DNA from: a virus
Lineage: Duplodnaviria > Caudoviricetes
Direction: 5' to 3' (one strand)
Length of the DNA: 64,000 nt
Virus record (IMG/VR): IMGVR_UViG_2061766007_000330
Under the pieces are notes generated by a model. That model saw only the letters and a program-made list of their open reading frames with translations, was not told where the DNA came from and made no database searches. A program made the translations under genes and the position numbers. Positions 7,517 through 36,648 of this stretch are shown in pieces (position 1 is the stretch's first letter; each line of letters opens with the position of its first letter).

Positions 7517-9619
7517 ATGTTTAACAAGAAAACCAGAGACTTTTTGAGAGAATGGCATCAAAAACACGAAGCGGGCAGGTCAGAGACGACGGAAACTGTC
7601 GAAGAACCGAAGACACCGGAACAGTCGGTTCAGACGCCACCGTCAGCGTCGGTTCCTACACCTCCTCCACCAGAGCCTGTGGTTGAGCCGACACACTCTG
7701 ATCCAAAACCAGTGATTAAAGACGTGGCTCCCAAGCCGAAGAAGCCTGAGATTCCACCGTCTCCGTTTTATTACATGCCGAAGCCGAAGGCGTCGCAACT
7801 AGCCGTCATAAAACGTATGGATGAAATGAAAGACAATTCGCCAGAACATTTTTTTTGTCCGTCGTACGAATTCAAGAATGACATGGTAGCAGACTTAGCT
7901 GTCATTATGGTTGTCTGGGGTAACAACGACCTCCAAATCAAGGCAACTGAAAAGGCGTTAAGTTATTTGTCGTTGATGACACCAGGTCCTGGCGTCTTTG
8001 TGTTTCTTGAAGCACAAGTCGATGGAAAACCACGTTACAAGTCGCTAGTTAATTCAATAAACTCGTCGTCGGTTGAGTACCTGTTCGACAAGATTTCTGA
8101 AGAAAATTCGTTGTATTTTCTAAAGGAATCTATGATGAATAAGGCTGTTTCTTTTGTTCAAAAAAATTATCCGAATATAACAAAACTTCTGTTTATGGAT
8201 TCGGATGTCTATTATCCGAACGCGTCGGCGTTCCAGCATATTTCTTACGACTTGGAACATGCGGAAGTTCTGTCTCCGTATTACAAAGCTGTGTATGTTG
8301 GAAACAATGACCAGTCTGCTAATTTCAAATCGCCCCTGGCAGTTGAATATGTGACGTCTTACTACAGAAATAAGAAAGTTACTATTGGGCATGATAGTTA
8401 TTTCGCAGGGTTGGCGACAGCGATGACCATGTCATTCTATAACCGTATGAACGGGATTGATGTTGTGGCTTGTGTGTCTGGAGACAAATGGCTTTGGACA
8501 CGGATATTTGGCAATGATCTGTTTGGTCAGAAACCATATCAGCAGCCAAATCAAATATGTTTACCGGTGAAGAAAGGCTTAGATCCAAAACCGAAGATTG
8601 GATATTCACACGAGGCAATAATTCATTGTTACCATGGAGACATGTCCAATCGGAACTATCGTCTGAAGCTTTATTTGGATAAATTGTCGAAATCGTATCC
8701 AAACGAATCGTTGGTTTTAGACGACAACGGTTATCCTGTCACAAGAGACACGGACGCAGGAAAGGTAATCAAAGCCGCATTCACTCGACTTAAAACTTCA
8801 AATATTTATGAAAATCGTCATCAACAGGAGTATAATCTCCAGACCGTGAGGTCTTTGTACAACCGTTGTGCAGATGAAGTTTATGGTCCTATAAACGACG
8901 AGAATCCTTTAGTGGTTTGCACGGTGCTTCGAAAAGGAGGTCCGTATGACGAGCGTCATATCAAAGCGCTCTATGACGGAATGAAGGAGTATTGTCTTAC
9001 GCCGTTTAGGTTCGTGTGCATTACAGATTTGGACATCAATGTTGACGGTATTGAAGTTGTGCCGTTTATGACAACGACTCGACAGATGCCGTACTATTAC
9101 AGTCAGCTGGAATGCTATCGTCCTGACTTATGGGATCCGAAGACAACATCTGTGTTTTGCATCGATATTGACGTGGTGCCTGTTCGTCCATTCACATTAC
9201 ATCAGTGCCCTAGAGGTACGGTGTTTATGCTTCCAGAGATGGATAGCATGTGGCAGTACAGTGGCTCGACTGTCCTTTGGAATGGTGGAACCGTCTATTA
9301 TCGAGGAGATTATTCGTTCATAATCGACGCCTTCATGATGCAGTCTTCTGATGGTAACGTGAGGAGTCCGTACATCACACATGTGTCATCTCAAGAAGTT
9401 GCTGCTGGTTATTTGTATGCTAGCGGTATTCCAATTGGTGACATTCGGTGTCATGTTCCTTTGGAGCTCTATAATCCAAAGGAAAAGCCTGAAGACATCG
9501 CATTGGTTCATTTTCCTGGGAATCCAAAACCTTGGAATTTGTCAGAAAAGGACATGCCGGTGTGGATGCCAGAACGTATAAAGGAATTAGGCTCCTTTAA
9601 AAAAGCCTATGAAGCCTGA
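7517..9619 (+). CDS. two-domain glycosyltransferase (GT-A N-domain plus GT8-like C-domain) with Pro-rich N-terminus
   Basis: KES..N, FMDSD, HCYHG..NRNY; C-domain GGPY, FVCITD, DIDVV, WNGG, VHFPGNPKPW. Confidence 0.8.
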   Translation: MFNKKTRDFLREWHQKHEAGRSETTETVEEPKTPEQSVQTPPSASVPTPPPPEPVVEPTHSDPKPVIKDVAPKPKKPEIPPSPFYYMPKPKASQLAVIKRMDEMKDNSPEHFFCPSYEFKNDMVADLAVIMVVWGNNDLQIKATEKALSYLSLMTPGPGVFVFLEAQVDGKPRYKSLVNSINSSSVEYLFDKISEENSLYFLKESMMNKAVSFVQKNYPNITKLLFMDSDVYYPNASAFQHISYDLEHAEVLSPYYKAVYVGNNDQSANFKSPLAVEYVTSYYRNKKVTIGHDSYFAGLATAMTMSFYNRMNGIDVVACVSGDKWLWTRIFGNDLFGQKPYQQPNQICLPVKKGLDPKPKIGYSHEAIIHCYHGDMSNRNYRLKLYLDKLSKSYPNESLVLDDNGYPVTRDTDAGKVIKAAFTRLKTSNIYENRHQQEYNLQTVRSLYNRCADEVYGPINDENPLVVCTVLRKGGPYDERHIKALYDGMKEYCLTPFRFVCITDLDINVDGIEVVPFMTTTRQMPYYYSQLECYRPDLWDPKTTSVFCIDIDVVPVRPFTLHQCPRGTVFMLPEMDSMWQYSGSTVLWNGGTVYYRGDYSFIIDAFMMQSSDGNVRSPYITHVSSQEVAAGYLYASGIPIGDIRCHVPLELYNPKEKPEDIALVHFPGNPKPWNLSEKDMPVWMPERIKELGSFKKAYEA

Positions 9620-9694: not shown

Positions 9695-10900
9695 ATGGCT
9701 ATTAATACTACTGCCGACAGATTTCGTTTTGTGAAGCTGACCCAGGCACAGTATGCTGCTCTTGGAGATGATCTTGGCACCACGTATGCCGATTATCTGT
9801 TCTTCACCACTGATACGAAGAAGATCTACAAGGGCGCGGACTGCTTGACCGACGCCATTGCAGCTGTTACGAACCATTCGACGCTCACGTCCATGACGAA
9901 GGTTACGGGTCGTTTCTACGTCGAAGCCGACACGAAGGATGTTTATTACTACGACGGCACGAACCTGGTGTTCATCACTGGTATCTACAGCGATGGTGCT
10001 GCGGATGCACTCAGTGCTGCTGTGATCGCCCAGACGACTCCTGGTACGTACGACGATACCGCCGCTGGCGTTGAGACCACGAGTGCGCGTCAGGTTGTGA
10101 CGTACGTTGAGGGCGTCAAAGAAGCTCTTACTCAGCTGATCAACAGCGTCAGCGCAGGCGTGAACTCGGCTGTTCATGCTCCTGTTCAGGACGAGACCGC
10201 TCTTGCCGCCATCAACCTGACCTCAGACGGCGTTCTCGACAAGACCATCTGCCTTGTTGAAGATTCGAGTGCCCTCTATCGTTACGACGCACAGAGCAGT
10301 GCTGCCGCAGCAGCTGGCAAGGTTGTTGCTCCTGGAAACAGCCAGACTGGTCGCTGGATTAAGATCCTGACGGCGGCGGATGTCGTTCTGACCGATATCC
10401 TTGCTACGACTGAGGCTCCTGCTAGCCTCGGTACGGCGCCTGCTGTTGGTACCTCGACCAAGGCTGCTCGCGCGGATCACGTCCATGACTATACCAGCAT
10501 TCTGGCTGTTGCCAACACGAACAACCCTGCTACGCTTGGTGGTTCCGGCACGGTTGCCAGTGGCAAGATTGGTTCGAACGCCGTTGGTTCTTCTAACAAG
10601 GTTGCGCGCGCTGATCACACGCACGAATTGGATCTGTCCGCCTACTACGCGACGGGCACTCCTGAAGCTGTTGGTGCGGCAACTGGTACGGTCACCAATG
10701 GTACGCTTGGTACGGCTGCAGCTGGTACTTCCCAGCAGTTCGCCAAGGCAGACCACGTCCACCAGCTCAATCTCACGCCGTACTACGCGACGACTGCACC
10801 TGTTGTGGCAGATGAGGCCGCTGTTGGTACTTCTCAGCAGTTTGCTAAGGCGGATCACGTCCATCCGTCGGAGAATGTCTGGTACACGGTTGCTGCTTAA
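9695..10900 (+). CDS. fibre protein with four A(R/K)ADHxH repeats
   Basis: shared fibre N-module; ARADHVH, ARADHTH and AKADHVH x2; Ala/Thr/Gly-rich; strongly biased codons. Confidence 0.75.
   Translation: MAINTTADRFRFVKLTQAQYAALGDDLGTTYADYLFFTTDTKKIYKGADCLTDAIAAVTNHSTLTSMTKVTGRFYVEADTKDVYYYDGTNLVFITGIYSDGAADALSAAVIAQTTPGTYDDTAAGVETTSARQVVTYVEGVKEALTQLINSVSAGVNSAVHAPVQDETALAAINLTSDGVLDKTICLVEDSSALYRYDAQSSAAAAAGKVVAPGNSQTGRWIKILTAADVVLTDILATTEAPASLGTAPAVGTSTKAARADHVHDYTSILAVANTNNPATLGGSGTVASGKIGSNAVGSSNKVARADHTHELDLSAYYATGTPEAVGAATGTVTNGTLGTAAAGTSQQFAKADHVHQLNLTPYYATTAPVVADEAAVGTSQQFAKADHVHPSENVWYTVAA
10440..10866 (+). repeat. four coding repeats A(V/A)G(T/S)S..(F/A/V)A(R/K)ADHxH
   Basis: visible in protein and DNA (GGTACTTC[C/T]CAGCAGTT[C/T]GC[C/T]AAGGC). 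Confidence 0.85.
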
Positions 10901-15700: not shown

Positions 15701-16804
15701 CCATTTACGACTACTGCCGGAACTGTCTACTATGACGGATTCTATGTCTTAACAGATCCGATGGCTCATGGCACAAACCGCATTTGGAAACATACCGATT
15801 CGGACGCCACTATTAGAGCACGAACTGTTAATGGAAGTGTCCGATGGATTTGGACGTCGTTGACATCCGAAGAAGACATTACCAATTCGTTGAATAATTC
15901 CGATATGAGTACGTTATATGCGTCAGCAACCAATCAGAATGGAGCGTATGCGACCAATCCGTTTGACGATGGTATTGTCTGGCAAGAAAAAATGGCTGGT
16001 GAGTATCGCGTAACGAGGTGCGAAGCCGTTGAATGGCTTGAAGACCTGACAATCACCTTTACATCCAACAACGAAGTTGCAAGACAACAGCTGGTAACAT
16101 TATTTGATACGACAAACGACCGTGAAATGGATCTTCCGAATGTCACACTGACGTCGTATCCAGATTCCAATAAACGCTGGGAAGGTGGAGAAGGCGGAGT
16201 GAGTGCTCGTAGAAATTATATCATCGATTACGATGAATCAAATAATTGCTGGTCGATGCATATCGAGTATGACATGGAAACTGTTGCCGAGTATGTGTCG
16301 GCAGAGTCCTATAACGAAGCGCATACGCCGATAGATGTGATGACGTGGAACTTTGTCTCCGGAACGAACATTGGTACGCCGAGTGTTACGTGGACACCGA
16401 AGGTCTTTGGTGCAATTACCAGAAACAACAACGCTGTTTCTAAGGGTGACAAATACAGACTATTCCATCTTTCTGACTATCTCAAAGAAGCGAATACTGC
16501 AATCACGCACCGCGAGAAGTGGAACGCGTTCTACGAAGGTCCTGATCAGGTTCCTCTTATTTGGTCTGAAGCCAAATGGAATGAATCCGAGTCCAAGTGG
16601 ACGATTGGTATTGTTCAGGGCATGATTCCAGATTACAGAGAAGCCGATGGTGGCGATCCAGAATTCCAGATTACCTCTGGAGCAAAATTCGTTTCGGACA
16701 ATGCTCCTGAATCGATCTTTGATGTTACCGGTTGGACACTGTCGCCTGCAAATGCGACGGCAGGCAATCTGACCTTTACATTCAAACCGATTGTTCGTAA
16801 CTAA
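12734..16804 (+). CDS. large PEGA/Ig-like repeat virion or adhesin protein (1356 aa)
   Basis: repeated beta-sandwich units of about 75-90 aa (F.DV.GF.TP, PG.H...., G.Y.V); V/T/N-rich; Trp-rich C-terminal repeats. Confidence 0.65.
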   Translation: MPQPDNLLPVTNPTGKTVSVKPGHHKIIFKDVDGFKTPQTVYVFVQPGTKQVINATYIPADMGQYAVQFVMEDQMSLHGSIEVPGFTVNDKHDVYKSANTNGNLWVSEYAPLKVSVENTLHFTDVYGFATPADLTNITISDGAKVLREDPIIYERLQGSITVRMIDENDNPVPNAQWKIADSRITEWNSGNTTIEMPVDKFNLQYREYNASLNTVVSSDDSDYIPPSVTRIPVVMSQTGETVVTVRYESKSSYNATVTVSVNGPDGAGWTLNINNRSIGPKVSGESVAVYLGKDTTQSSVGTVVFSDVANYDKPSNIENIIIHPKDVKELASLVDYKPYIGKLVLDAPPVKYNDGTSLKVCIAKVTGTTVEITDASGNRSNVTLGFDTYLPFGDYTITGYNVGNKVYETPNPTNPTITINVQPIGSETTPSNVRVGWTAQHVQIADYIYPSEAIDVEIKESENVSVGSALDNVTVGFNHSDTNMNMTFGKNFDEKVLVGTWNYANTISNIPEGYKLYSVTESVNVLPNQTSKITVNIDSPETLKDVVTIHVTDNVGETVPGAYVTIDNDSTHYTNGAVVKLAPGQHTFHAVEISNYLSPSDYTYTAVERGRNHSVNCIYVENVAHVYVTSSDRPNAKFLVDNDPTEHPVGDTPVKLGIGAHTITYLADGNYRPDKVSDTVNLERGDVRTLSITYTGYGKAKATLKDSVTNADVTGTIVLKNQTTNVVVATITANNNTVVDIPEGTYNVDVINIDSNYNAPSVSSITINAESTTLIISRVATYKYGSVKVRLLGDATTEGVYNDVLSGSASLWQNNAKVMDITPNNNSFTNVPTGTYIVKATVSTSGYSEVQNGQVTVTPHSEDVVNMHATYVCATVKATLKGNYQENQENYSRDLEGTVSIYNSNDELVGTITPNNNSSTIVLTPGTYRATASVTTADYNLTEASQTFTVSSRETKTLAFTARFYSETPEVSAGVLNVQIRSNYGSELAPFTTTAGTVYYDGFYVLTDPMAHGTNRIWKHTDSDATIRARTVNGSVRWIWTSLTSEEDITNSLNNSDMSTLYASATNQNGAYATNPFDDGIVWQEKMAGEYRVTRCEAVEWLEDLTITFTSNNEVARQQLVTLFDTTNDREMDLPNVTLTSYPDSNKRWEGGEGGVSARRNYIIDYDESNNCWSMHIEYDMETVAEYVSAESYNEAHTPIDVMTWNFVSGTNIGTPSVTWTPKVFGAITRNNNAVSKGDKYRLFHLSDYLKEANTAITHREKWNAFYEGPDQVPLIWSEAKWNESESKWTIGIVQGMIPDYREADGGDPEFQITSGAKFVSDNAPESIFDVTGWTLSPANATAGNLTFTFKPIVRN

Positions 16805-17881: not shown

Positions 17882-19843
17882 ATGAAACAACCGATGATTA
17901 TCAACCTGTATGGTGGCTATCGTGGAAACTTTCATGTCAAACTGGCAGAAGCTCCGATAAATCCAAGACCTCCTGTGATTCCGAGACCTGTTCATAAGAA
18001 CGCTGTGATCGGACGACCTGTTCCACCGCCAAATCCACCGACTAAAGGATTTCCTGTCCCACAGGAAGTTCGTGATATGCTGACAAAGGCATCACGTGAT
18101 CGTGTTTGCAAGATTGTTTACCAGGAACCACCAGCCATTCCGTTGATGTATGCAGATGATACTGCGATTATTATTTCCACGTATGGGAATGATGAAAAGC
18201 GACTGGGAAATCTTAAGCAGATGTTGAACAGAATTGCTCTGTTTAATCCTGCTCCGTTTGTGTTTGTTGTTGAAGGGTCTTACGACGACACGTATCATGC
18301 GGATAAACTATGCGAAGGAAAATCAAGAATGACGCATGCCACAATCAAACTGGATCCTGTGTCACAGAAAGGTATTTGGTTGAAAGAAGGCATGTGGTCT
18401 GTGATGGCCAATGCTATTTGTGATTCTGAAGAATACAACGGAATCAAATATTTTGTCTTCTTGGATGCGGATATCATTCCGTATGAAAGCGATTACATCA
18501 CTCGTGTTCGTGAGACTTTACAGAAAAACGAAGTGGCTTCACCGTTTGCGTACGCATATTTTGCGGATCACAACGACGAAGTTTCCTTACGTCCGAGTAT
18601 TGCGTTTTCCATTTTGGAACGTGAAAAACGTGGTTATCCTGGGTTTGGATTTGCCATGACCCGAGAGTTCTTCAAGAATCGTTTGCATGGACAATTTGAG
18701 GCGATGCCGCCTGCGGATACAATGCTGTATCACAAATTGTTCCCGTGGGAACACGAATGTCCTCGTAAGAGTCGTCCGTTCCCGACACACAAGTATGCAG
18801 AATGTCCGATGAATCCAAGGCCGTTGGTTGGTTATGTTCCTGCTGTTATCGGTCACATGGAGCACGACAGCAATCATGATGACAACTGGTATTCCGCATT
18901 GGCAGCCATTCATCGTTTATCGGCGTCATCGTTGAATGAATTGGTTATTTACAACGATAAAGGCCTGCCATACTGGATTGATGGTGGTGAGGATACAGAC
19001 GAAAAGGCAACGATTTTCCGTGAACTCAAGGACAAAATCTATGAACTACATGCAAACGGAGATCCTCTGGATCCCATGACGGTTAAGGATTGTTATGAAG
19101 ATGTTGCTGCTAGTGTCTACGGACACATTGATGCTGATCATCCGTTGGTTATCGCTTGTCTTCTGAGGATGGGTGGTCGGTACATGCCGAATCAAGTCGA
19201 GTTCTTGGCTGCTGAGTTCAAGAAATATTGTCTGGTTCCTCATGAATTCGTCTGTTTCACAGACTATGAAGGAACTATTGATGGTGTTCGTACGATTCCA
19301 TTGGAAACAACTCCAGAAGAAGCTCCTGGTACATTGGCACAGTTGGAGTTCTTCAGGAACCTGTGGACTCCGAACACAAGCATTATGACGATTGATCTTG
19401 ATACGGTTGTCATGAATGCCTTTACACCTCATGTCTGTCCTGATGACGGGATTTACATGTTGCGCGAAGCGTTTAATCGTAAAGATTCCAATAAGGATTG
19501 GGTTCTGTGGAATTGCGGTCAGATGTATTTCAGGGCAGGCAAGTTCTCGTTCTTGTATGACAAGTTCAAGGAAGAAGCACAACAGAAATGGACTCATCGG
19601 CATCCGGCGTTCCAGTACATTGGTACTCAGGAATACATTGCTGCAAATATCAAAGCCGGAGGTTATTACATTGATGATCTGATTCATCATTTCATCTACA
19701 GCTTCTATCATGCGACAGAGCAGTGGATGTGGGTTTTGGATGGCTCGACATTCATTCATTTCCCTGATAAACCAAAGGCGTGGGAAGTCACAGCTCCGTG
19801 GAATAAGGAAATATTTCATAGATATCCAAGAGGGCTTCGTTAG
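17882..19843 (+). CDS. two-domain glycosyltransferase with Pro-rich N-terminus
   Basis: WLKEGMW, FLDAD, PGFGFAMTR; C-domain FVCFTD, DLDTV, WNCG, HFPDKPKAW. Confidence 0.8.
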   Translation: MKQPMIINLYGGYRGNFHVKLAEAPINPRPPVIPRPVHKNAVIGRPVPPPNPPTKGFPVPQEVRDMLTKASRDRVCKIVYQEPPAIPLMYADDTAIIISTYGNDEKRLGNLKQMLNRIALFNPAPFVFVVEGSYDDTYHADKLCEGKSRMTHATIKLDPVSQKGIWLKEGMWSVMANAICDSEEYNGIKYFVFLDADIIPYESDYITRVRETLQKNEVASPFAYAYFADHNDEVSLRPSIAFSILEREKRGYPGFGFAMTREFFKNRLHGQFEAMPPADTMLYHKLFPWEHECPRKSRPFPTHKYAECPMNPRPLVGYVPAVIGHMEHDSNHDDNWYSALAAIHRLSASSLNELVIYNDKGLPYWIDGGEDTDEKATIFRELKDKIYELHANGDPLDPMTVKDCYEDVAASVYGHIDADHPLVIACLLRMGGRYMPNQVEFLAAEFKKYCLVPHEFVCFTDYEGTIDGVRTIPLETTPEEAPGTLAQLEFFRNLWTPNTSIMTIDLDTVVMNAFTPHVCPDDGIYMLREAFNRKDSNKDWVLWNCGQMYFRAGKFSFLYDKFKEEAQQKWTHRHPAFQYIGTQEYIAANIKAGGYYIDDLIHHFIYSFYHATEQWMWVLDGSTFIHFPDKPKAWEVTAPWNKEIFHRYPRGLR

Positions 19844-19845: not shown

Positions 19846-21774
19846 ATGAACATACGTAAACCATATTCAAGTGTAATAAAGATGGCGCGATCCACACGAG
19901 AGACCATGTATAATCGACAACTCTCTCCTGTGTTTGTGCCAAAAGTCAAACCTAAGCCTGTCTCTCAGATACAACGCCAGGTTCAGGAAGTGCGGGAACG
20001 AAAATATCCATTCTTTCCTGAGCCTGTCGAAAAAGTCTATGACAGATGCTATTTAAACGATACGGCTATGCCAGTCTTGTATGAGTCTGCACAAGACGGA
20101 ACTCTTTTGACCAATATAGCCATAATCTATTCGGTGTACGGACACTCGGATATTCGAAAGGAAGTATTTGACAGTGTCATGTCTCGAATGACCAACTTAT
20201 TGAATCCTAAAGCACTTATATTCATTTGCGAAGGGCAGTATGACAACGTCTGGGATTTTGAGAAATATAAAGACATTCCAGGTGTTGTCTACTATCCTTA
20301 TCAGTTGAATCCAGAAACACAAGACGGAATCTGGCTGAAAGAAGGTCTATGGAACTACGCGGCTCACATGCTAATGGAAGATGCTACGTATGACGACGTT
20401 CAGTATTTTCTGTTTTTAGACTCCGACATTATTCCATATGAGAGTAACTACATAGCCAGAGTCTTGAACACACTGAAGACTTATTCCATTGCCGCTCCCT
20501 TTGCAGTTGGGTATTACTCGAATCAAGAAGACCGAAAGCATGAAATATTCACAAGCGTCGAATACGGATATAGAAAAAAGACACAGTACTATAAGCATCC
20601 TGGATTCGGGTTTGCAATGACTCGTGACTTTTATAAAAACCGTGTAAAATACTTTGAGAGTGCTCATGCAGGAGATACGATTTTTTGGAGACGAGTTTAT
20701 GGAAAGCGCTATGTGATTCCGCGTCGACATGAGATTGTTTCTGTAGATCGCATCACCGAGCAAGGTATGGTTCCAAAACCGTCTGTTGGTTATGTGGATG
20801 CGTTATTTGTCCATATTCACCACTCAGCTCGGTTGGTTGATTATTATCTTGGCAGCGCCACAGCGTATCGTCTGTGTTGTACAACACTAGATGACCTATG
20901 GAAATTCGACGCATACGGAGTTCCGTTTGATTCAGGTACGATAAAGTCGAAGATATTTAAACAGTTGTGGTCGATTCTCATGAAAGCTAATAGCAAAGAC
21001 AAACCATTGACCATTAGAGAAACTGCTGCTGTTTATGAGAAATTGGCATGTGATGCTTATGGTGAAATCAACGATGAATACCCTTTGGTCGTTGCCTGTG
21101 TATATCGTCCGTATGGACATTACACGGAAGATCACGTCCGTCATCTAAAAGCACAATTTGAAAAATATTGTCAAGTACCTTTTAGGTTTGTCTGTTTTGC
21201 CGACAATGATGTAGACGGAGTGGAAACGATAAAGTTGAACACATCACCCGAACAATCGCCTGGAACATTACCGCAAGTGGAATTTTTTAGAGACATCTGG
21301 TCACCAAACGCAAGTATCTTGACATGTGACTTGGATACTGTGATAATGCGTCCGTTTGTTCCTCATCGGTGTCCTATCGATACGGTTTATATGCTTAAGG
21401 AGTATGGAAACAAACAAGGTGCAAATGTTGACAGGATTCTGTGGAACTGTGGAATGATGTACTTCCGTGGTAGACAATTTGTTCAGGTATATCGTCAATT
21501 TGAACGGGATGTTCTAGATGCCGTTAAATGGCATCATCCTGCGTTCCAGTATATCGGAACACAAGAATATATCGCCTCTATTCTTAGAGGTCAGGGTATT
21601 TCACTTGACGATATCGGACATCATTTTTCATACTCGTTTTTCTCGAAAGATCTCGATCGGTGGGCGTTGCCAGATTCTGCGTTTATGCATTTCTGCTGGT
21701 ATCCAAAACCTTGGGAAGCTGCTGTCAAAGATGTGATTCCGCAAGCAAAGGATTTCCCACCGTCGGCAATTTAA
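19846..21774 (+). CDS. two-domain glycosyltransferase, closest paralog of 17882-19843
   Basis: WLKEGLWN, FLDSD, PGFGFAMTR; DLDTV, WNCG, HPAFQYIGTQEYIA, HFCWYPKPW. Confidence 0.8.
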   Translation: MNIRKPYSSVIKMARSTRETMYNRQLSPVFVPKVKPKPVSQIQRQVQEVRERKYPFFPEPVEKVYDRCYLNDTAMPVLYESAQDGTLLTNIAIIYSVYGHSDIRKEVFDSVMSRMTNLLNPKALIFICEGQYDNVWDFEKYKDIPGVVYYPYQLNPETQDGIWLKEGLWNYAAHMLMEDATYDDVQYFLFLDSDIIPYESNYIARVLNTLKTYSIAAPFAVGYYSNQEDRKHEIFTSVEYGYRKKTQYYKHPGFGFAMTRDFYKNRVKYFESAHAGDTIFWRRVYGKRYVIPRRHEIVSVDRITEQGMVPKPSVGYVDALFVHIHHSARLVDYYLGSATAYRLCCTTLDDLWKFDAYGVPFDSGTIKSKIFKQLWSILMKANSKDKPLTIRETAAVYEKLACDAYGEINDEYPLVVACVYRPYGHYTEDHVRHLKAQFEKYCQVPFRFVCFADNDVDGVETIKLNTSPEQSPGTLPQVEFFRDIWSPNASILTCDLDTVIMRPFVPHRCPIDTVYMLKEYGNKQGANVDRILWNCGMMYFRGRQFVQVYRQFERDVLDAVKWHHPAFQYIGTQEYIASILRGQGISLDDIGHHFSYSFFSKDLDRWALPDSAFMHFCWYPKPWEAAVKDVIPQAKDFPPSAI

Positions 21775-24753: not shown

Positions 24754-25194
24754 ATGCTCATGAAATGCTTTAATTGTGGAAAACAGATGAAAAAGGTACG
24801 GGACGGTCATGGTGTTATCCTTGACATGTGCCCCTCTTGCCACAGCATGTGGTTCGACCGTGGAGAATTCTCTATTTACTTTGATTTGGTCAAGGCAAAG
24901 GCGCGTCAGGTTTCCAACAATCTTGACGGTCTTTTGGCTTTTGAGAAGAAGATAGAGGCTGCCACTGTTTCCGAAATACCTGATGATCCTGGTGTCTGTA
25001 AGGCATGCGGGCTTGGAAAGCTCATTCAAATATCTCATACGGATACACACGCTGCTCTGCTGAAATGCACGAACTGTCGTGGCATTGGAATGAAGAAAGA
25101 GAGTGAAGCGGTTATCAGAAAATATACAGAACGTTCGAAATTCCAGATTTTCTGTGATCGATTAAGAAAATTGTTTGGGTTAAAAAACAAATAA
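24754..25194 (+). CDS. double zinc-ribbon (zf-TFIIB-like) protein
   Basis: CFNC...LDMCPSCHSMWFDRGE and a second CKAC...CTNC. Confidence 0.8.
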   Translation: MLMKCFNCGKQMKKVRDGHGVILDMCPSCHSMWFDRGEFSIYFDLVKAKARQVSNNLDGLLAFEKKIEAATVSEIPDDPGVCKACGLGKLIQISHTDTHAALLKCTNCRGIGMKKESEAVIRKYTERSKFQIFCDRLRKLFGLKNK

Positions 25195-25230: not shown

Positions 25231-25896
25231 TCAGTGAATTGCTCCTTTGTTTGCCGTAATGAGCATCTGTTCAAACGCGTTTGTTATTTCTTCTTCGGTT
25301 ACATTTGCTTCGTAGAGCGCATGAGAAACCTTGGCGATTTGACCAACGATCATCGTTAATTGTGTAACGATTGGCATCTTTGGTTTCTTGATATTGTTTA
25401 CGATTCCGGAAAGAAGACACGCTGTATCATACGCCGATGTCATTAAGAACGAACTGTATTCGTCTTCCTGAAACTCTGAAATACACGAGCGTTCAACCCA
25501 GCAGGCATCCAACCCTCCCCGTCTGTGGAGATTGGAAAAACACGGAATTCTCAGAAATTCGACGTAAGGATACCACACAGATTCGTTTTGTGGCAATATT
25601 CTGCTGCCTTTTGAATACTCGGCAGAAATATCAGCAAACTGATTTCTTTCCAGAAGAGTGTAGACTGTGTAATCAAGTACAGGAATGACGAATTTTGTAG
25701 ATTCGTCTTTTGTGTTTTTCAACGACTCCGCTGTCAATGTCAATGTCGTGTATTTGTGGTTGACGTTCATTGACATGTAGACAGCGTTAGTGAGTTTGTT
25801 GACAAACAGAGGTTGACTGGCGGAGGAGTTCTGAATAAACCACTCCGCACCGAGTTTTTCAAAATTTTTATGTTTGTTTAACGACATGACGTGCAA
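25231..25896 (-). CDS. hypothetical protein
   Basis: 221 aa ORF overlapping the end of the upstream gene. Confidence 0.6.
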   Translation of the reverse strand: MHVMSLNKHKNFEKLGAEWFIQNSSASQPLFVNKLTNAVYMSMNVNHKYTTLTLTAESLKNTKDESTKFVIPVLDYTVYTLLERNQFADISAEYSKGSRILPQNESVWYPYVEFLRIPCFSNLHRRGGLDACWVERSCISEFQEDEYSSFLMTSAYDTACLLSGIVNNIKKPKMPIVTQLTMIVGQIAKVSHALYEANVTEEEITNAFEQMLITANKGAIH

Positions 25897-26921
25897 TAAA
25901 CGTTTTTGTCAAATTTTGAAAGCCAATCTGCCAAGAATAAGACATCGGATTCCGAAAGTGGACGATACTGATTCGTGTCGATACCTACATTGACACCATT
26001 GCGTTTAACCACACCTAGACGATGAATGTGGCCAAACATCCAGCAATCAGGCTCTTGATTTTTACTAAGGGCAATGCCAGCAGTCTCATAAGCCAATGGT
26101 TCATGAACCATGATAAATGTTTTATCTCTAAGTTTTACCGTCGTAGGTTCGAGATACAGTGAAGGACTGAAAACTCGAACACGTTTGTCTTTGTAGAATA
26201 CTTTAGAGAAATTATCGCCACCTTCTATATCGTGATTACCAGGAGTGAATTCGATGCTTGATCCGTTTAGAACTTTAAGTATCGTTGGATCACCAAAATC
26301 TCCTAAATGGTAAACGGTATCTTGGTTCAGAATACGTTTGTTCCAATTGGAGATAAGTCCCAGTGTCATCGCGTATGTTGAATGCCATGGGCGTTTCGAC
26401 AACTTCAACGTTCTGTCTTCGTTGAAATGAGTGTCCGCAGTAAAGAACTTTTGACTAGGTCTGGTCATCAGTTCTGCAATATACTCAGAGCCATCATTGA
26501 TAAATTCAAACGTCGGTACTTCATTTGCCATGACCAAGTCTGCGAACGCCGTGTCTTTGTACATGCCTGGACAGATAAACACGATACGTTCGCATTTCAG
26601 CCATTGACTAAGAGTAAGAAACCATGATGAATTTGTCGATTTGTAGTTAAAATCATTATAGAAGCACATGCATGACGCATAGTGACGTGCTTTGTTATTC
26701 CAATTGACACGGGCAATGGAATCCAAATCCGTCGGATCAACAATGGCTTCTTGGATAATGACTTGATTCTCATAGACGTCTTCAGACAGACACTCTTTGA
26801 GAGCAGATTGAATTGTCTTCAGAACACAGTTCGCAATCGCCGTATCCGTGTTTATACTCAGATAGATGGCGTTGCGAACGAGAGGTGTATCTAAAGACGT
26901 TGGGTATCGTAGTACTTTCAT
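25878..26921 (-). CDS. calcineurin-like metallophosphoesterase with extra N-terminal domain
   Basis: ADTHF, LGDFG, GNHD, VHEP, GHIH, NVGID. Confidence 0.9.
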   Translation of the reverse strand: MKVLRYPTSLDTPLVRNAIYLSINTDTAIANCVLKTIQSALKECLSEDVYENQVIIQEAIVDPTDLDSIARVNWNNKARHYASCMCFYNDFNYKSTNSSWFLTLSQWLKCERIVFICPGMYKDTAFADLVMANEVPTFEFINDGSEYIAELMTRPSQKFFTADTHFNEDRTLKLSKRPWHSTYAMTLGLISNWNKRILNQDTVYHLGDFGDPTILKVLNGSSIEFTPGNHDIEGGDNFSKVFYKDKRVRVFSPSLYLEPTTVKLRDKTFIMVHEPLAYETAGIALSKNQEPDCWMFGHIHRLGVVKRNGVNVGIDTNQYRPLSESDVLFLADWLSKFDKNVYCTSCR

Positions 26922-27865
26922 TTTCCGTCAAATAGATAACCGATGTTTCCAAGATTGTTCTTTACCGTTGTCTTCTGAAGTTTCGCTTGAACACGTTTGG
27001 CGTGCTGATTATGAACACTGGCGACGACCATTGCAGGAGTTAGTGAAGTTGTAGCCATGTAGTAGTTAGCCAGACCCTTGATCACGTGAGTAAACACAAC
27101 CTGCTTTTTGCAGATGGCATGAATCTCACGGAAGATTCGACGAATGTTTCTCGTCGTTGCAACGAGATTATCGTCATTGCCGGCAAACCAGCGTTCACAC
27201 GCCTTGGAAGAAATGTACTGGTTGCCATATGGATCTGGAGTTTTGGAGATATTTTCAAACAGCGTTGCGACCATTCGGTACATCTGATGCACATGGACTT
27301 TATCCACAACATCATTGATACGACCGCTGATGTCGGCATGGAACTGCATAAGAACTTCCATGAACACATTATCATAAATAATGCTGTTCGGCTTAGTGAT
27401 ATTTTCACACATCCAATCCAACAAAATCTTCTGCTCCTGCTCGCTGAAACTGAGCCGAGACAGTTTTTCTTTTCGAGCAAGCATCGTCTGCGAAATATCT
27501 TCGACTCTGGCTTGGAAACGACGGTTCTGTTCACGCTTTTCGTGTTCGTCACCATCTTTCAACGCTGCCAGAATCTGCGTCATATACTTCGCATTCTGAT
27601 ACGGTCCGTTTGGTTTCTTGGGTGGAATAAACTTGCATGTTTCGACGACATAGAACTTGTTTGCATAAGTCAATTTGGACGGATCATTGATGTCGCAGTT
27701 GTCGTCGAGTTTTCTTGACCAATCAATGGTACGGCCACGGTACGTGAACCTACGAAGAGATGCAGTCTCGACGAGTGTTCCTGATGCGTTTGGAACATTC
27801 GTAGAAGAAATCGTTTCAGCATTCTTCATCTGTTCATTCCAATCATTGTAGAGTTCTTTCAACAT
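26918..27865 (-). CDS. hypothetical protein
   Basis: 315 aa ORF with ATGA coupling to the next gene. Confidence 0.7.
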   Translation of the reverse strand: MLKELYNDWNEQMKNAETISSTNVPNASGTLVETASLRRFTYRGRTIDWSRKLDDNCDINDPSKLTYANKFYVVETCKFIPPKKPNGPYQNAKYMTQILAALKDGDEHEKREQNRRFQARVEDISQTMLARKEKLSRLSFSEQEQKILLDWMCENITKPNSIIYDNVFMEVLMQFHADISGRINDVVDKVHVHQMYRMVATLFENISKTPDPYGNQYISSKACERWFAGNDDNLVATTRNIRRIFREIHAICKKQVVFTHVIKGLANYYMATTSLTPAMVVASVHNQHAKRVQAKLQKTTVKNNLGNIGYLFDGK

Positions 27866-28021
27866 TGGTACGGTTTCCTACAGGTTTAAAATTTGACGGT
27901 TTTTGTAAGTTAAGAGCGAGACTCCCAACATGGTCATAAAATTTCTAGGTGTAATTAAATAATTATATTTATTTTTTTAGCAATTTTATGAACCTTGGAT
28001 ACCTAACTTATACATAAGGAA

Positions 28022-28984
28022 ATGTTGTTTATGGGAACCTTTATTTCAGTTCCAGAGTCAACACAAGATCCTCTGGATATATTGAATTCTACGTTCTTTG
28101 ACGAAACATTGGACCGTGACATTGAGCGTGCAATTACAATTGCGAAGAAGAAACAGTTGATTCATGAATATATTCAGTCGCTTGAAGGCGGCGAAGTTCA
28201 GTATGTTGTTGATGACCAGAATCTTTGGGAGAAAATCTTCGGTGTTCGTCTGACGGACGATGACTGGAAAGCTCTCGGAAAAGCGGGTTCGCGTATTTTG
28301 GATGGCATGGGAAAACTCTGTGTCGGTGTCAAAAACTTCGCAGTGAGCATCAAAAACTTTGCACAGAATAAGCGAATTTCTGAAGAGTACATCATCGAGA
28401 AGTTCGGAAAACTTTATAATAAACTGGCTTCAATTCCATATCGTAAAGCACAGGTGGAAGATGTTCCAACGTATGAACTGATGCATCTTCGTTGTGCTGG
28501 ATTGTTGTCAGTGTGTGGGTCAATCAAGGAAATGTCCGAGAAAGACCCTGGTGATTTGGATTTGTCAGATTCCATTCTTGACCGTGTTGCCAATCTATCA
28601 AAGAACGTGCTTCAAGTAACAGCGGCTGAGAAAGGATCGTCTGTTCGAAATCTGGCATGGCATGAACCACAGTTGACGACATATGACGTCAAAGCCTCGA
28701 AGTGGTGTAATGAACAAAATCTGAATAAGCTAAAGAACGTTTACTTGGATGTGAAATTTAACGCATCCGAAGACTTAGATAAAGCTTCTGAGAAGTTGAT
28801 TGCAAACTGCAAATCAATGGTTCAAGAAGAGCATGATGACAAGGATGAGTTGGTTGATACGTATTCGACCGCTTACATCATAGGGAAGATGATCAAGCAA
28901 GTGCACCAGTTTGGTATCCAGAGGGAGATTAATACGTGTTGCACAACGTATCTTGACCGTCTAATGGACTACAAATCTATGTAA
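28022..28984 (+). CDS. putative internal head protein
   Basis: acidic propeptide ending in SLE-G, then amphipathic helices; weak similarity to 33262-34050. Confidence 0.55.
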   Translation: MLFMGTFISVPESTQDPLDILNSTFFDETLDRDIERAITIAKKKQLIHEYIQSLEGGEVQYVVDDQNLWEKIFGVRLTDDDWKALGKAGSRILDGMGKLCVGVKNFAVSIKNFAQNKRISEEYIIEKFGKLYNKLASIPYRKAQVEDVPTYELMHLRCAGLLSVCGSIKEMSEKDPGDLDLSDSILDRVANLSKNVLQVTAAEKGSSVRNLAWHEPQLTTYDVKASKWCNEQNLNKLKNVYLDVKFNASEDLDKASEKLIANCKSMVQEEHDDKDELVDTYSTAYIIGKMIKQVHQFGIQREINTCCTTYLDRLMDYKSM

Positions 28985-28996
28985 AGGAGACGTTTA

Positions 28997-29341
28997 ATGA
29001 AAAGCTTATTCGAAGTGATGTATGGCAAACCCTTAACTTTCAGGGAACCTATCATTGATGGCTCGCACCCGTCGTTGTTTGACGACAAGGACCTGATGAC
29101 TGCCTCGGCAATGCTATCGGACGAAATCGACACGGCTACAAGTATCAGTAGGGGGACTCCGTTGGTTGTGTTCTTTGGAAACAAGGACAACGGATTAAAC
29201 AAGATGCTTGCTAAGCATGGATATAAGTCAACCGATAAGCCGATGCTGATTGTCGACGATCTCATCATCTACATCACAAACCCAGAAAATCGACTGCAGC
29301 GCAAAGAAACATCACCTATGTTAGGACTTCAAAACGTATGA
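28997..29341 (+). CDS. hypothetical protein
   Basis: 114 aa; AGGAG RBS. Confidence 0.65.
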   Translation: MKSLFEVMYGKPLTFREPIIDGSHPSLFDDKDLMTASAMLSDEIDTATSISRGTPLVVFFGNKDNGLNKMLAKHGYKSTDKPMLIVDDLIIYITNPENRLQRKETSPMLGLQNV

Positions 29342-30348
29342 AATCACGGTGTAACCACATAGCCATTGCTCAATCACATGCTAGAATTGGACTTTTAGGA
29401 AACCCATCGGATCTCTATAACGGAAAATGCCTCTCTGCATCCATTCTGAATTATACGACATTTGTCATCATCTATCCAAATGTTGACAAGTCTTCGACAA
29501 TATGGTTCCCAAGAAGCCAAAACGACGACAGCGTCTGGTCGTCTCGAAAACGTCTTGTGGACATGGTAGATTTGAACGGATACTACGGAAGTACCCGACT
29601 ATTCAAATCCGCTTATGTTCAGTTCATTAACTATCTGAAGAAAAAGAAACGCAGAATTCCAGCAGTTGGATTTAGTGTTCAGATGAAAACCAGTATTCCG
29701 ACAATGGTTGGATTGGCTGGGTCTTCTGCGATCGTCACAGCGTTCTTAAAGGCGTTGGCGAGTTTTTATGAGGAGAGGATTTCAGAATACGATTTAGTGT
29801 TATTGTCTGCTGAAGCAGAACGGGCATTGGGTATCCGTTGTGGATATCAAGACAGAATTGCGCAAATTTACAATAGTCTTGTTTTTATGGATTTTTCAAG
29901 AAATAACCCCAGTGAAACACGGGAATTTTCTTGTGAAAAACTCGATAAAAAGCTATTACCGATGATGTACATTGCCTATGCAAATAACACGAAAAAACAG
30001 TGTTCTGGACAGAAATTGACAGCGTCAAAAACACTAACGGCAGACGATCCAACAATACAGAATATTGCGTATCTGGCTACCGCAGGAAGAGAAGCGTTGT
30101 TAGCTGGAGACAAGAAATCGTTTTCAGAATACATTGATTTAAATTACAATCTTCGGGAATCGATTCTTCCTGTATCTGAAACGGATTCTGAAATTGTTCG
30201 ATTGGCACGAGCGTGCGGAATGTCAGCAAAACTGACAGGTTCTGGAGGTTGTATCACAGGTGTGTATACCTCTGAAGAACAGTATGACCGGTTCGTCGTC
30301 ACTATGAAGACAATGAATGTTTCTGTTGAAAAAGTCATATTTGCATAA
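29338..30348 (+). CDS. GHMP kinase, glucuronokinase-like
   Basis: ARIGLLGNPSD, GYYG..RL, IP..VGLAGSSAIV, G.QDR.AQ.Y..LVFMDFS and KLTGSGG, matching the glucuronokinase subfamily as I recall it. Confidence 0.85.
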   Translation: MKSRCNHIAIAQSHARIGLLGNPSDLYNGKCLSASILNYTTFVIIYPNVDKSSTIWFPRSQNDDSVWSSRKRLVDMVDLNGYYGSTRLFKSAYVQFINYLKKKKRRIPAVGFSVQMKTSIPTMVGLAGSSAIVTAFLKALASFYEERISEYDLVLLSAEAERALGIRCGYQDRIAQIYNSLVFMDFSRNNPSETREFSCEKLDKKLLPMMYIAYANNTKKQCSGQKLTASKTLTADDPTIQNIAYLATAGREALLAGDKKSFSEYIDLNYNLRESILPVSETDSEIVRLARACGMSAKLTGSGGCITGVYTSEEQYDRFVVTMKTMNVSVEKVIFA

Positions 30349-30357
30349 TACGTTCCT

Positions 30358-30390
30358 AGGATACAGGAGGGCTGTCCCCTCCTGTATCCT
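30358..30390. terminator. terminator between convergent genes
   Basis: 14-bp stem AGGATACAGGAGGG plus T tail. Confidence 0.8.
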
Positions 30391-30398
30391 TTTATCTG

Positions 30399-30920
30399 TT
30401 ATACTCTTGAACAGTTGAGTCGTTCAATGATTCCTGTAATCAATGTTCCGTCATAACCGTATTCACAGCGTTGATACATGGTGAATGTACGATGCCGTGT
30501 GACTTCTTTGTGAAGAAATTCGTATTCTGTCAGTTTGAAGTCCGTGTCGTATTTCATGAACGTGTTGTATTTCTTTACACCGATAATCAGTACGTGCTGT
30601 GAACCATGAATGGTTGGAGTCAATTCGAAATACTCCGTGTCTGGGACATACGTACCGAACAGTCGAAAGAACGTCTTGTCGCATCCGATAGTGTCGTGTA
30701 AATATTTTTCAAACTGCTCAATAAACAAATGCGTCGCTTTGCAATGATGACTGTTGTGAGTGAGTTCTTTATCTAAATCTGAATGACTGTAAAGACATGG
30801 ACAATTCTCGAACAAATAGGACCCTTTCAGTCCTGGAATCTTTGATTCGTCATACACGATTGTTAGCGGATTTCTATGGTCTGTGTCGTCTAGTGATTTG
30901 GATATGAGCATCGTTTTCAT
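30399..30920 (-). CDS. hypothetical protein
   Basis: 173 aa; GAGGA RBS. Confidence 0.65.
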   Translation of the reverse strand: MKTMLISKSLDDTDHRNPLTIVYDESKIPGLKGSYLFENCPCLYSHSDLDKELTHNSHHCKATHLFIEQFEKYLHDTIGCDKTFFRLFGTYVPDTEYFELTPTIHGSQHVLIIGVKKYNTFMKYDTDFKLTEYEFLHKEVTRHRTFTMYQRCEYGYDGTLITGIIERLNCSRV

Positions 30921-30945
30921 TTGAGTTTCCTCTGATAATAAATTG

Positions 30946-30976
30946 GTAGCATCCCCTTATAGAAAAGGGATGCTAC
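30946..30976 (-). terminator. terminator after the ClpP pair
   Basis: stem GTAGCATCCC/GGGATGCTAC. Confidence 0.7.
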
Positions 30977-30988
30977 TTAAAATAATAT

Positions 30989-31741
30989 TTAATCCTCGCC
31001 GTTGAATTTGTTGATAACTTCTTCAAGTTTCTTTCCGAACAGCGCAACTTTACCCTGATGTTCGGCGATATGAGTTAGTTGCTCGTCTGTCAAGAATCCA
31101 AAGGCACGAAGTCGATTCAACATAATGCCACGACGATATAACTCGGAATCCAGACCAGACTGCGCATCTTTAAATGCACCCGCTGCGCCAATTGTCGGTG
31201 CATCAAACTGAATAATGCCGTATGGACTATTGACGATGTAAGATGCAAACGTAAGAATGTAAGCGGCAGGCGTGTTAAGGATATAAGGAGACGAAATAGC
31301 GATGTCCTTTGACTTGCAATCACAAATAGCTCCGGCAATCACCTCACCCCATTCAATCGGAATCTTCGCCGGACCAAGAATCAGCACACGATCCGTCGGA
31401 CGAACAGCTTGCATCAGTGCGACAAAGTCGTTCATGACCAGACGTTTCAGCGTCATCACATTCAGGAAAACAGTCCAAATAGCCTGAGTATCCGAAAGCT
31501 CTCGACGAACATACCACAGTTTCATGCACCGAACCGTGTCGTTGTCGGGTGGCTGGTTTTCATCAACATTAAACAGCTTCGGCACTGGACCACCGTCAAA
31601 TGCCTCCTTAGAATAGGTCATCTGATCGGCTTTCTCGACAATATCAGCAACAGATGTTTCGGGTTCAGGAACATGAATGGACTCGGATGCGAACGTTAAT
31701 TTCGCAGGCTTGTTGAAGTAAAAATCACCATCGTTAATCAT
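30989..31741 (-). CDS. ClpP-like protein lacking catalytic Ser/His (ClpR-like)
   Basis: aligns with its neighbour: LNTPAAYI vs CASIAAVM; QFDAP vs MFHMP; FLTDEQL vs ILTDEQL. Confidence 0.65.
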   Translation of the reverse strand: MINDGDFYFNKPAKLTFASESIHVPEPETSVADIVEKADQMTYSKEAFDGGPVPKLFNVDENQPPDNDTVRCMKLWYVRRELSDTQAIWTVFLNVMTLKRLVMNDFVALMQAVRPTDRVLILGPAKIPIEWGEVIAGAICDCKSKDIAISSPYILNTPAAYILTFASYIVNSPYGIIQFDAPTIGAAGAFKDAQSGLDSELYRRGIMLNRLRAFGFLTDEQLTHIAEHQGKVALFGKKLEEVINKFNGED

Positions 31742-32355
31742 TTGTCACGTTCCTCCTCTTCCAGACGACCGCAGCATTCCTTGCTCAATTTGGCTTCAGG
31801 AATGTACGTGTCTTTTCGATTCATTACGATATCTTTAAGTTGCTCATCGGTCAAAATACCGTCTGTGATTTCTTTCAGCAAATCATAGAAATACTCTTGC
31901 ACCTGATGAGATTCCTCCTCAAGGTCTGCCGTTTTTCCGAAGTTTCCGCCGGATGGCATGTGAAACATGATGGTGGCATTTGGACCAGCATAGCGCTTGA
32001 CACCCTTGCAACCACACCACATGACAGCGGCAATACTGGCACAGAGACCATAGGTCACCGTGTAGATTTCAGCTTGACAATTGTGCATAGCATGCAGCAC
32101 CATGATTCCCGTATCGACGAATCCGCCACAGGAATAGAACAAAAGCTTGATGGTGTCTTCTTTTTTTGCGGAATACAAAACGTCGAACAATTCGACGTAG
32201 TTGTCGGGAGCGTCGACAAATTCATCAAAGATGCAAACGTATGTTTTACCACCGTTTGGCTTTGGATAGCAGGATACGATGCCTCTGGCTCCAGCAGGAC
32301 GCTGCGGCATGGAGGCAATTACTTTTGGTTTTTCAGTTTTATTTTCTTCAGCCAT
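31738..32355 (-). CDS. clpP: ClpP-family serine protease
   Basis: SCGG.V..G, GLCASIAA (Ser), IMFHMP (His), KDTYI (Asp). Confidence 0.85.
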   Translation of the reverse strand: MAEENKTEKPKVIASMPQRPAGARGIVSCYPKPNGGKTYVCIFDEFVDAPDNYVELFDVLYSAKKEDTIKLLFYSCGGFVDTGIMVLHAMHNCQAEIYTVTYGLCASIAAVMWCGCKGVKRYAGPNATIMFHMPSGGNFGKTADLEEESHQVQEYFYDLLKEITDGILTDEQLKDIVMNRKDTYIPEAKLSKECCGRLEEEERDK

Positions 32356-32429
32356 AGTTTTTACTCAATTTTATAGGCTATGTGTTAAAGTTAAATTGGT
32401 ATAAAATGATTAATAGAGGAGATTTTAAC

Positions 32430-33257
32430 ATGAAAAAACTGCTGTTTTTGTGCTTGTGTCTGACCCTTTCCGTTCTTGCTGAATATCAGGTGTTCAATTT
32501 CTCGACAACGATTAAACACGTTGAACCGGTCTATACAACCGGTGGAACAAAAATTGTATCGTCGACGCTTAAAGGCTATCTCGTCAGTGTCTGTTGTTAT
32601 CCGTGCGGTGCCAGTTTTGGAAAAGGCTATCCGACGTGGTTGTATGTAATCAGGAGAAACGACCCTGAGAAAATCCTGTGGAAGATTCCTGTCAAGGTTG
32701 ACGGCGGATTATTTGGTTATTACCTCAATCCTCTTAGATTGGAAGATATTTGGTATGATTATCACTACAGCAATGAACTGAAGAAATACACAAAGAAAGG
32801 GAACAAATCTTGGGTCAGGTTGGAATATACGTCGACAAACGCCGTAGAGGTGACGTTGACGAGCAAGAAAATAACCAAGACCTCGAGGACTGTTCAATAC
32901 GGACCACTCGGCAACGGATGTGGGACATTAATTGTACAGTGTTCCGGTTTCGGTTCTGGCAATGTCAAAACCAACACAAGAATTTATGAATGGGTGAATC
33001 CATATCTGGCAAGTGTCTCTGGAAGCGTCACGGGGACGTCGGTTTATCCTGAGTTCTCATTCGATCCGTCGAATTTGAGAGCGTATGACATTGCTCCAAT
33101 TACAGGCTCGTTTACAATACGATTCAACAATTCGATGACCGAGGAAATTCGAGGCACTGCTGACTGGTCGGTTATCGACAGAAGAATCTACAGACATTTA
33201 AAATACAAATCAATTGTTGAACAAGAAGGCGATGATTCGCTTTGGCTCGAGGATTAA
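32430..33257 (+). CDS. secreted/envelope protein with Sec signal peptide
   Basis: start moved to ATG 32430 (GAGGAG RBS); MKKLLFLCLCLTLSVLA signal; beta-rich with a Cys cluster CCYPC. Confidence 0.65.
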   Translation: MKKLLFLCLCLTLSVLAEYQVFNFSTTIKHVEPVYTTGGTKIVSSTLKGYLVSVCCYPCGASFGKGYPTWLYVIRRNDPEKILWKIPVKVDGGLFGYYLNPLRLEDIWYDYHYSNELKKYTKKGNKSWVRLEYTSTNAVEVTLTSKKITKTSRTVQYGPLGNGCGTLIVQCSGFGSGNVKTNTRIYEWVNPYLASVSGSVTGTSVYPEFSFDPSNLRAYDIAPITGSFTIRFNNSMTEEIRGTADWSVIDRRIYRHLKYKSIVEQEGDDSLWLED

Positions 33258-35676: not shown

Positions 35677-36648
35677 TTACAAAGTGTTGACAACAACGTT
35701 GTATCCGTTATCCACCAATTTTTTACGCAATTGCTTGAATATCGTTTTAGACAACGCTGTGGAATCTGGGTCTGTTGTTTGTTTGTGATAGGTCAAAGAC
35801 GGGTAGTCTTTATAGGGTATCAATTCAATTGATCCAGAATTTATACCATATTCTTTTAGTCTTTCAGGAACTTCGAGAGACGACGATTCGTTTTGTGGCA
35901 TAAGCACGTAATTGATCGTACCTAACAAACCCAAGTCATAGGCGTGCTTTATGTTTTGTATCGTCGTTTCAAAATGTCCGCCGCGCCTAATAGATTCATA
36001 GGTGTTTTTGTCAAATCCGTCGATTGATGCACCGATTTTGATAGATTTGTCACAAAGAGTCAGATGCGTAAAAATGTCGTCTTGAATTTCAGGTAATAAC
36101 CGTGTGTAGTTTGATAACGCATAGATGTTTTTGACATAATCGGATTCAGTCAACTCCATCAACCATTTATAGGAATACCCGTTTTTGAAGTCCATAAACG
36201 GTTCTCCTTTCGTGGTCAGCCGAATGCTCCTAACAATGTTCTTAAAATAGTTCATGCATTCTAACTGCACTCGTTTTCGAAGATCTTTAAGTTCGTTATG
36301 TTCATTCGATGGAATGTAACAATGAACGCATCGCAAATTACAGTCGCCATCAACAGAAATATTTACATTGTTTATTTTTGTGAACGGTTCTTCTGTATAT
36401 CGCATAGATGTGCAACGACACGTTTTTGCTAATTCAATTAACGACATATTTTCAAATAAGGCGTTAAGATAACCAGAAACGTCTCTTGAAAATTCATTAA
36501 TATCCTCTGGGATATATGAACTGATTGTGTTCCTGATCCTTTCCGCATTCTCTGGTAGTTTTGCTAGACAGCAGTCGAACCACAGTTTCAGTTTCTCATG
36601 TTCGTAGATGATCGACAGCCTTCGTGTTTTTGAACAATAAATTTGCAT
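35677..36648 (-). CDS. radical SAM domain protein
   Basis: CNLRCVHC, KGEPF, SIDG...TYESIRRGG. Confidence 0.85.
   Translation of the reverse strand: MQIYCSKTRRLSIIYEHEKLKLWFDCCLAKLPENAERIRNTISSYIPEDINEFSRDVSGYLNALFENMSLIELAKTCRCTSMRYTEEPFTKINNVNISVDGDCNLRCVHCYIPSNEHNELKDLRKRVQLECMNYFKNIVRSIRLTTKGEPFMDFKNGYSYKWLMELTESDYVKNIYALSNYTRLLPEIQDDIFTHLTLCDKSIKIGASIDGFDKNTYESIRRGGHFETTIQNIKHAYDLGLLGTINYVLMPQNESSSLEVPERLKEYGINSGSIELIPYKDYPSLTYHKQTTDPDSTALSKTIFKQLRKKLVDNGYNVVVNTL

Follow-up and report, generated by a model that had tools for sequence, protein, structure and literature searches.

The open reading frame at 29338..30348 (+) of the stretch of viral DNA analysed here (the window, 64,000 nucleotides in length) encodes, judged by its sequence, a very divergent GHMP kinase of the glucuronokinase (GlcAK) lineage, and it is the first kinase of this lineage found in a phage among the collections that we searched (GenBank phages and IMG/VR). 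The explanation that we favour, with a probability of about 50%, is that the protein is an active glucuronate (GlcA) kinase carried as an auxiliary metabolic gene, and that UDP-GlcA is made from its product via a transferase encoded elsewhere. According to this explanation, the protein would be an ATP-dependent kinase acting on the anomeric (C1) position of a sugar, and it would serve a phiKZ-like jumbo phage of the rumen.

The gene has an ATG start and an intact frame of 336 aa. The earlier note on this DNA had placed a sugar kinase at exactly this position and had listed five motifs for it, all of which are present in the translation: ARIGLLGNPSD (residues 15-25), GYYGSTRL (81-88), QDRIAQIY (171-178), MDFS (184-187) and TGSGG (300-304). 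All five map to invariant or nearly invariant columns of the glucuronokinase clade. The assignment to the GHMP kinases likewise holds, with both Pfam domains scoring above their cut-offs, namely GHMP_kinases_N (PF00288; E=2.3e-14, 53.8 bits against a cut-off of 22.3) and GHMP_kinases_C (PF08544; E=6.4e-6, 26.9 bits against a cut-off of 21). The phosphate-binding motif II (P-x-x-x-G-L-x-S-S-A) is present as P121-T-M-V-G-L-A-G-S-S-A131. The AF2 model (pTM 0.82) has the two-domain GHMP fold, and the loops at residues 56-82, 189-194 and 219-230 are remodelled and of low confidence. Foldseek aligned this model to mevalonate kinase (MVK, 1vis), WcbL (4usk) and galactokinase (GalK, 1pie) with TM scores of 0.72-0.79; these were the nearest solved structures, and no glucuronokinase structure was among the matches. 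The best solved-structure relatives are the D-glycero-D-manno-heptose-7-phosphate kinases HddA and WcbL (4n3o, 4usk; E=1.6e-11, TM 0.79), which differ from the phage kinase in being only ~20% identical to it and in occupying a separate branch of the tree.

Three other family assignments were considered and rejected. The HddA heptose-7-phosphate kinase model (NCBIfam NF049969) gave 60.6 of the 600 bits required, the mevalonate kinase equivalog (TIGR00549) gave 61.4 of 163 bits, and galactokinase scored ~30 bits, far under its NCBIfam cut-off. The NCBIfam scan returned no glucuronokinase model for any of the clade members scanned, and this is probably why NCBI labels clade members as "mevalonate kinase family".

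Placement in the glucuronokinase lineage is supported by profile scores and by phylogeny. A profile HMM built from 43 cellular members of the clade, with the phage sequence left out, gave the phage kinase 301 bits and the HddA-like kinase of cyanophage Bellamy 56 bits, and it gave GalK, ThrB, IspE and the other GHMP kinases of the bacterial genomes concerned no more than 36 bits. In an IQ-TREE phylogeny (54 rows, LG+C20), the phage kinase groups with the GlcAKs of plants, fish and bacteria (UFBoot 99 / SH-aLRT 95) to the exclusion of GalK, HddA-like kinases, ThrB and IspE. Within this group, the ML tree places it on a long terminal branch as the sister of the 43 cellular members taken together (UFBoot 92 / SH-aLRT 93), and its orthology with the characterised enzymes is therefore not established. 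Nesting of the phage kinase among the bacterial GlcAKs was not rejected in an AU test of alternative placements (p=0.122), so the long branch may just mirror fast phage evolution. The match to plant-type glucuronokinase described in the earlier note is thus correct with respect to the lineage, with the qualification that the phage protein is its most divergent and basal member; the phylogeny against GHMP subfamilies that the same note had proposed confirms the GlcAK grouping and, in the ML tree, puts the phage protein outside the cellular crown, with nesting among the bacterial members still compatible with the AU test.

The closest sequences are full-length bacterial proteins of ~331 aa, with identities of 38-43% and E values down to 2e-64, and many of these bacterial relatives are named glucuronokinase by JGI. 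Nothing among ~15 billion proteins is more than 43% identical to the phage kinase, which we regard as a singleton because an exhaustive phmmer search of 1.84 billion representatives gave nothing closer than 42% identity. Arabidopsis GlcAK1 (At3g01640, EC 2.7.1.43; PMC2823444) was represented in our comparison by its plant ortholog from Ziziphus jujuba (P0262), which resembles the phage kinase in fold and length and is 34% identical to it over 306 aa (E=9e-50). The two share ARxGLLGNPSD, GY.G..RL, GL(A/S)GSSAI, GLQDRxAQxY, MDFS and TGSGG, and they differ in that the phage-borne protein has shorter loops. A peptide from the purified Lilium glucuronokinase, VGFLGNPSDVYFGR (PMC2823444), aligns to residues 16-29 of the phage kinase. 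In zebrafish DrGKUP, the enzyme that was assayed, a glucuronokinase and a putative UDP-GlcA pyrophosphorylase are fused into one protein (PMC3938481). It was represented here by fish orthologs (P0175 and P0209), whose kinase domain is 32% identical to the phage protein over 311 aa (E=5e-43) and falls in the same clade of the trees; the fish protein has an N-terminal NTP_transferase domain, whereas the phage protein is limited to the kinase domain, and the window encodes no transferase of this kind. Some fungal and protist GlcAK-like domains (P0126, P0127, P0159 and P0161) are fused to choline-transporter-like, GARS/ATP-grasp or ABC transporter modules, and some of these fusions may be gene-model artefacts.

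The sequence indicates that the phage protein is intact and is probably an active sugar-1-kinase. At a threshold of 90% or more among 67 clade members, 67 columns are conserved; the phage protein keeps 51 of these, and the catalytic core is retained: R16, N22 and D25 of motif I, P121 with GLAGSSA, and E161, the QDR aspartate D172 and GSGG 301-304, which occupy clade-invariant columns. We take R16, N22 and D25 to be the motif-I positions that contact the sugar in structures of galactokinase-type GHMP kinases. The 16 altered columns include R122T, Y199C, G197F, S222C, T31C and G26L. The first of these lies in the phosphate-loop motif, which reads IPRQxG in the clade and IPTMVG in the phage kinase, so that T122-M123 replaces the R-Q of plant, fish and bacterial GlcAKs; position 199, a cysteine in the phage protein, is a tyrosine in 99% of the clade. 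Departures such as R122T, Y199C, G197F and S222C could alter the sugar pocket.

These changes bear directly on the question of the substrate. AtGlcAK and DrGKUP are strictly GlcA-specific (PMC2823444, PMC3938481), and glucuronokinase specificity has been established only for the enzymes of Arabidopsis, Lilium, zebrafish and Xenopus (PMC2823444, PMC3938481). For the phage kinase, D-glucuronate is the most likely substrate that its sequence suggests, at roughly even odds. A less likely but serious alternative is that the protein has kept the fold and the chemistry and acts on another sugar, either as a neofunctionalised enzyme or as a deep-branching sister of the GlcAKs; candidate substrates would be GalA, 4-O-methyl-GlcA or a neutral hexose or pentose, and the resulting sugar-1-phosphate would lead to an NDP-sugar used by the phage. 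The basal position and long terminal branch of the phage kinase are in line with such a shift, as are the non-conservative changes at columns that are 93-99% conserved (R122T, Y199C, G197F, S222C and T31C), the loops that appear remodelled in the predicted structure, and the absence of a linked GalU-type partner. Against it, the phage kinase shares R16, N22, D25 and the catalytic residue D172 with the GlcAKs, and the branch may owe its length to the fast evolution of phages, nesting among the bacterial GlcAKs being compatible with the AU test.

Homologs of the kinase are encoded in the genomes of at least 544 bacterial species, and the pair of kinase and transferase is found in Bacteroidota, Gemmatimonadota, PVC and other bacteria, with some members coming from ruminant-gut MAGs. 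In 80 bacterial loci analysed, a GalU-type nucleotidyltransferase (PF00483) of ~291 aa was the only strongly conserved neighbour of the kinase; the two genes are adjacent in 64 loci, separated by a median of 5.5 nt, and in 60 loci the transferase gene immediately follows the kinase gene in the same orientation (examples of this context are L062:5808-7223, L072:11318-12301 and L005:5991-7013). Genes for the glucuronate isomerase UxaC, the TRAP binding protein DctP and LacI regulators recur near the kinase in some of the loci. Of five genomes tested in which the bacterial kinase is not linked to the transferase, three encode an ortholog of the latter (55-59% identity) at another site. Fusions of NTP_transferase and GHMP domains are present among the longer eukaryotic relatives, including the fish protein annotated as "glucuronokinase with putative uridyl pyrophosphorylase". 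Taken together, the bacterial operons and the eukaryotic fusions imply that the kinase is functionally tied to a sugar-1-phosphate nucleotidyltransferase. The literature that we searched held no biochemical test of a bacterial member of the clade or of the kinase-GalU pair.

The phage gene departs from this arrangement. Although bacterial operon members are its closest sequences over the full length, it is followed by a terminator-like hairpin and preceded by two ORFans, whereas the bacterial transferase lies within a few bases after the kinase. A six-frame search of the 64-kb window with the partner HMM (hmmsearch --max) gave a best E value of 0.84, and Pfam scans of all window ORFs of at least 200 aa and of the four shorter non-shadow ORFs (135-152 aa) revealed no nucleotidyltransferase, UDP-Glc dehydrogenase or epimerase. 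The claim of the earlier note that no pyrophosphorylase is visible in the window is borne out by these searches. It should be noted that they covered the window, which is part of a contig of 131,894 bp. With the partner enzyme absent from the window, the sugar and the purpose of the phage kinase are what we infer; we likewise infer that it is active, where its nucleotidyltransferase comes from and that it is linked to glycosyltransferases.

The kinase is the last gene of a three-gene unit on the + strand (28022→30348), which is flanked on both sides by genes on the opposite strand. The unit starts with a gene for a 320-aa protein (28022..28984, +), which is co-oriented with the kinase as had been described. 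The earlier note regarded it as a putative head gene, an identification for which we found no basis: neither Pfam, PHROGs and the ESM Atlas nor a tblastn search of phages gave any match. The second gene (28997..29341, +) encodes a 114-aa ORFan that has no match in Pfam or PHROGs, and an AGGAG ribosome-binding site is located 8 nt upstream of it. Its TGA stop codon overlaps the ATG of the kinase gene (ATGA), and to judge by this arrangement the two genes are probably translationally coupled. Among the genes compared, the one for the 114-aa ORFan has the codon use furthest from typical (GC3 0.557; distance 0.55 versus a mean of 0.32), and its canonical AGGAG site may hint at Shine-Dalgarno initiation in the host. 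The AT-rich region between the divergent units (27866..28021) is likely to contain the promoter of the kinase unit; sigma-70-like promoter matches showed no excess over the shuffled expectation. Ten nucleotides past the kinase stop codon, between convergent genes, lies the terminator-like hairpin (30358..30390, +), which has a 14-bp stem with eight G-C pairs and a T-rich tail.

The earlier note had proposed that the kinase could supply donors to a cluster of glycosyltransferases (GTs) in the window, and the GT domains of this cluster are real. They form the C-terminal parts of three two-domain paralogs on the + strand that match the "glycosyltransferase" family phrog_1962 (E=7e-17 to 7e-11) and have an F-x-D-x-D motif in common: 7517..9619 (E=6.6e-17, with a weak match to GT8), 17882..19843 (E=7.6e-14; PF03407, E=1.6e-3) and 19846..21774 (E=6.9e-11; PF03407, E=3.7e-3). 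Profile searches of the paralogs against the PDB gave only a GT8 hint (E=0.36), and the AF2 model of the protein encoded at 17882-19843 has a pLDDT of 40.7. Their sole relative in 5.8 billion protein clusters is a protein of 585 aa (P0391, 30% identical) encoded on a 204,670-bp JGI contig that probably belongs to another jumbo phage; a JGI metagenome contains a 2.3-kb sequence (L107) with a fragment 61% identical to P0391. The GT protein encoded at 7517..9619 possibly consumes an NDP-sugar, and it is plausible that the kinase supplies donors to the paralogs. A distance of 7.5 kb, which contains opposite-strand genes, separates the end of the GT genes from the kinase gene downstream. Other genes are found near this block. 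A protein of 1356 aa with a SpaA prealbumin-like (adhesin-type) domain is encoded at 12734-16804 (+), and its neighbours at 3927-7508 and 9695-10900 have weak N-terminal matches to "Phage tail tip". The interval from the GT/fibre block to the kinase unit contains genes for a TFIIB-type zinc-ribbon protein (24754-25194, +) and a metallophosphoesterase (25878-26921, -; phrog_547, E=1.4e-28).

A precedent for nucleotide-sugar genes in phages is provided by Synechococcus phage Bellamy, whose gp215 "kinase" (MF351863.1) is also a phage-encoded GHMP sugar kinase. This protein is HddA-like and only 22% identical to the kinase described here, and its gene forms a contiguous cassette with genes for a nucleotidyl transferase, two epimerase/dehydratases and a glycosyltransferase. 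The kinase unit studied here, by contrast, has no contiguous nucleotidyltransferase, epimerase/dehydratase or GT gene.

If the phage protein is an active GlcA kinase, it would during infection most likely convert free D-glucuronate, which is plentiful where hosts break down plant glucuronoxylan, into glucuronate-1-phosphate. A nucleotidyltransferase encoded elsewhere would then make UDP-glucuronate from it; this enzyme may be the host's GalU-type partner from a kinase-nucleotidyltransferase operon, or it may be encoded in the other half of the genome of the phage. Glycan synthesis in the infected cell would draw on the UDP-sugar, plausibly through the phage's own GT paralogs. The most specific version of this proposal, a salvage route in which the phage glucuronokinase and a host GalU-type transferase provide UDP-GlcA to LARGE-like GT paralogs that build a GlcA-containing glycan on the fibres, is unlikely to hold in its entirety. 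We consider it quite unlikely that the kinase instead works independently of the phage GTs, by diverting imported hexuronate from UxaC catabolism into the UDP-GlcA pool of the host, as a means, for instance, of changing the glycans of capsule or envelope or of preventing superinfection. The location of the kinase apart from the GT genes, in a three-gene unit of its own with a terminator-like hairpin, fits such a takeover of host metabolism, and so does the proximity of some bacterial homologs to hexuronate genes (UxaC, DctP and LacI), but the phage's own GT domains would need donors.

The window derives from a distant, uncultured phiKZ-like jumbo phage of the bovine gut. The Peptidase_S80 prohead protease encoded at 36710-37501 matches those of 83 phiKZ-like jumbo phages with ~33% identity, and the window also carries DUF7193, DUF7208, a tail tube protein and a ClpP-like gene; its match to the PhiKZ vertex protein is weak and under the Pfam cut-off. 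No tRNA genes are present in the 64 kb. The ClpP-family protease gene (31738-32355, -; Pfam E=1e-18) overlaps by ATGA with the downstream ORF at 30989-31741 (-), whose 250-aa product has no family match. A gene for a radical SAM enzyme (35677-36648, -; Pfam E=2.9e-11) adjoins the prohead protease gene and sits in a stretch of structural genes with a lower GC content (0.36-0.40).

The kinase gene belongs to this phage. A Logan contig of 40,885 bp from a bovine-gut run covers positions 27000-33000 with zero differences, which means that the kinase gene is physically joined to phage genes. In its GC content (0.406 versus 0.425±0.041) and codon use (rank 18 of 41), the gene is in keeping with the phage. 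Two other studies yielded short contigs that match portions of the kinase gene with 95-99% identity and no indels, and hence the gene persists in variants of the phage. A glucuronokinase-like gene had been thought unusual for a phage, and our searches agree: the 50,697 GenBank phage records contained only three matching places in two phages (one of which is present under two accessions), at ~22% identity, and searches of IMG/VR with the kinase protein and with its alignment gave no match, nor did those with the tail-tube protein and P0391. That the kinase is an inactive or decaying passenger gene without a role in infection, as its being a singleton without close relatives, its many substitutions at conserved positions and the missing partner gene in the window might suggest, is very improbable: the frame is open over its full length and every catalytic motif is preserved, the codon use is adapted to the phage, translational coupling is predicted within a unit that ends in a terminator-like hairpin, and the variants seen in two other studies have kept the gene free of indels.

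To our knowledge, the nucleotide-sugar auxiliary genes of phages form de novo or heptose-type cassettes, and we know of no report so far of a salvage-type kinase of the glucuronokinase lineage in a phage. The kinase described here bears on the widespread bacterial kinase-GalU pair, for which we found no biochemical test in the literature. If the enzyme is active on glucuronate, glycan synthesis by a gut phage would be tied to the plant-fibre sugars that its host digests, and the compact, strongly diverged enzyme would be of use for establishing what determines uronic-acid specificity in a family that had no structure among the solved-structure matches. If, in addition, the route from salvage to a fibre glycan proves true, it would be the first demonstration in a virus of a sugar-1-kinase salvage pathway serving virion glycosylation.
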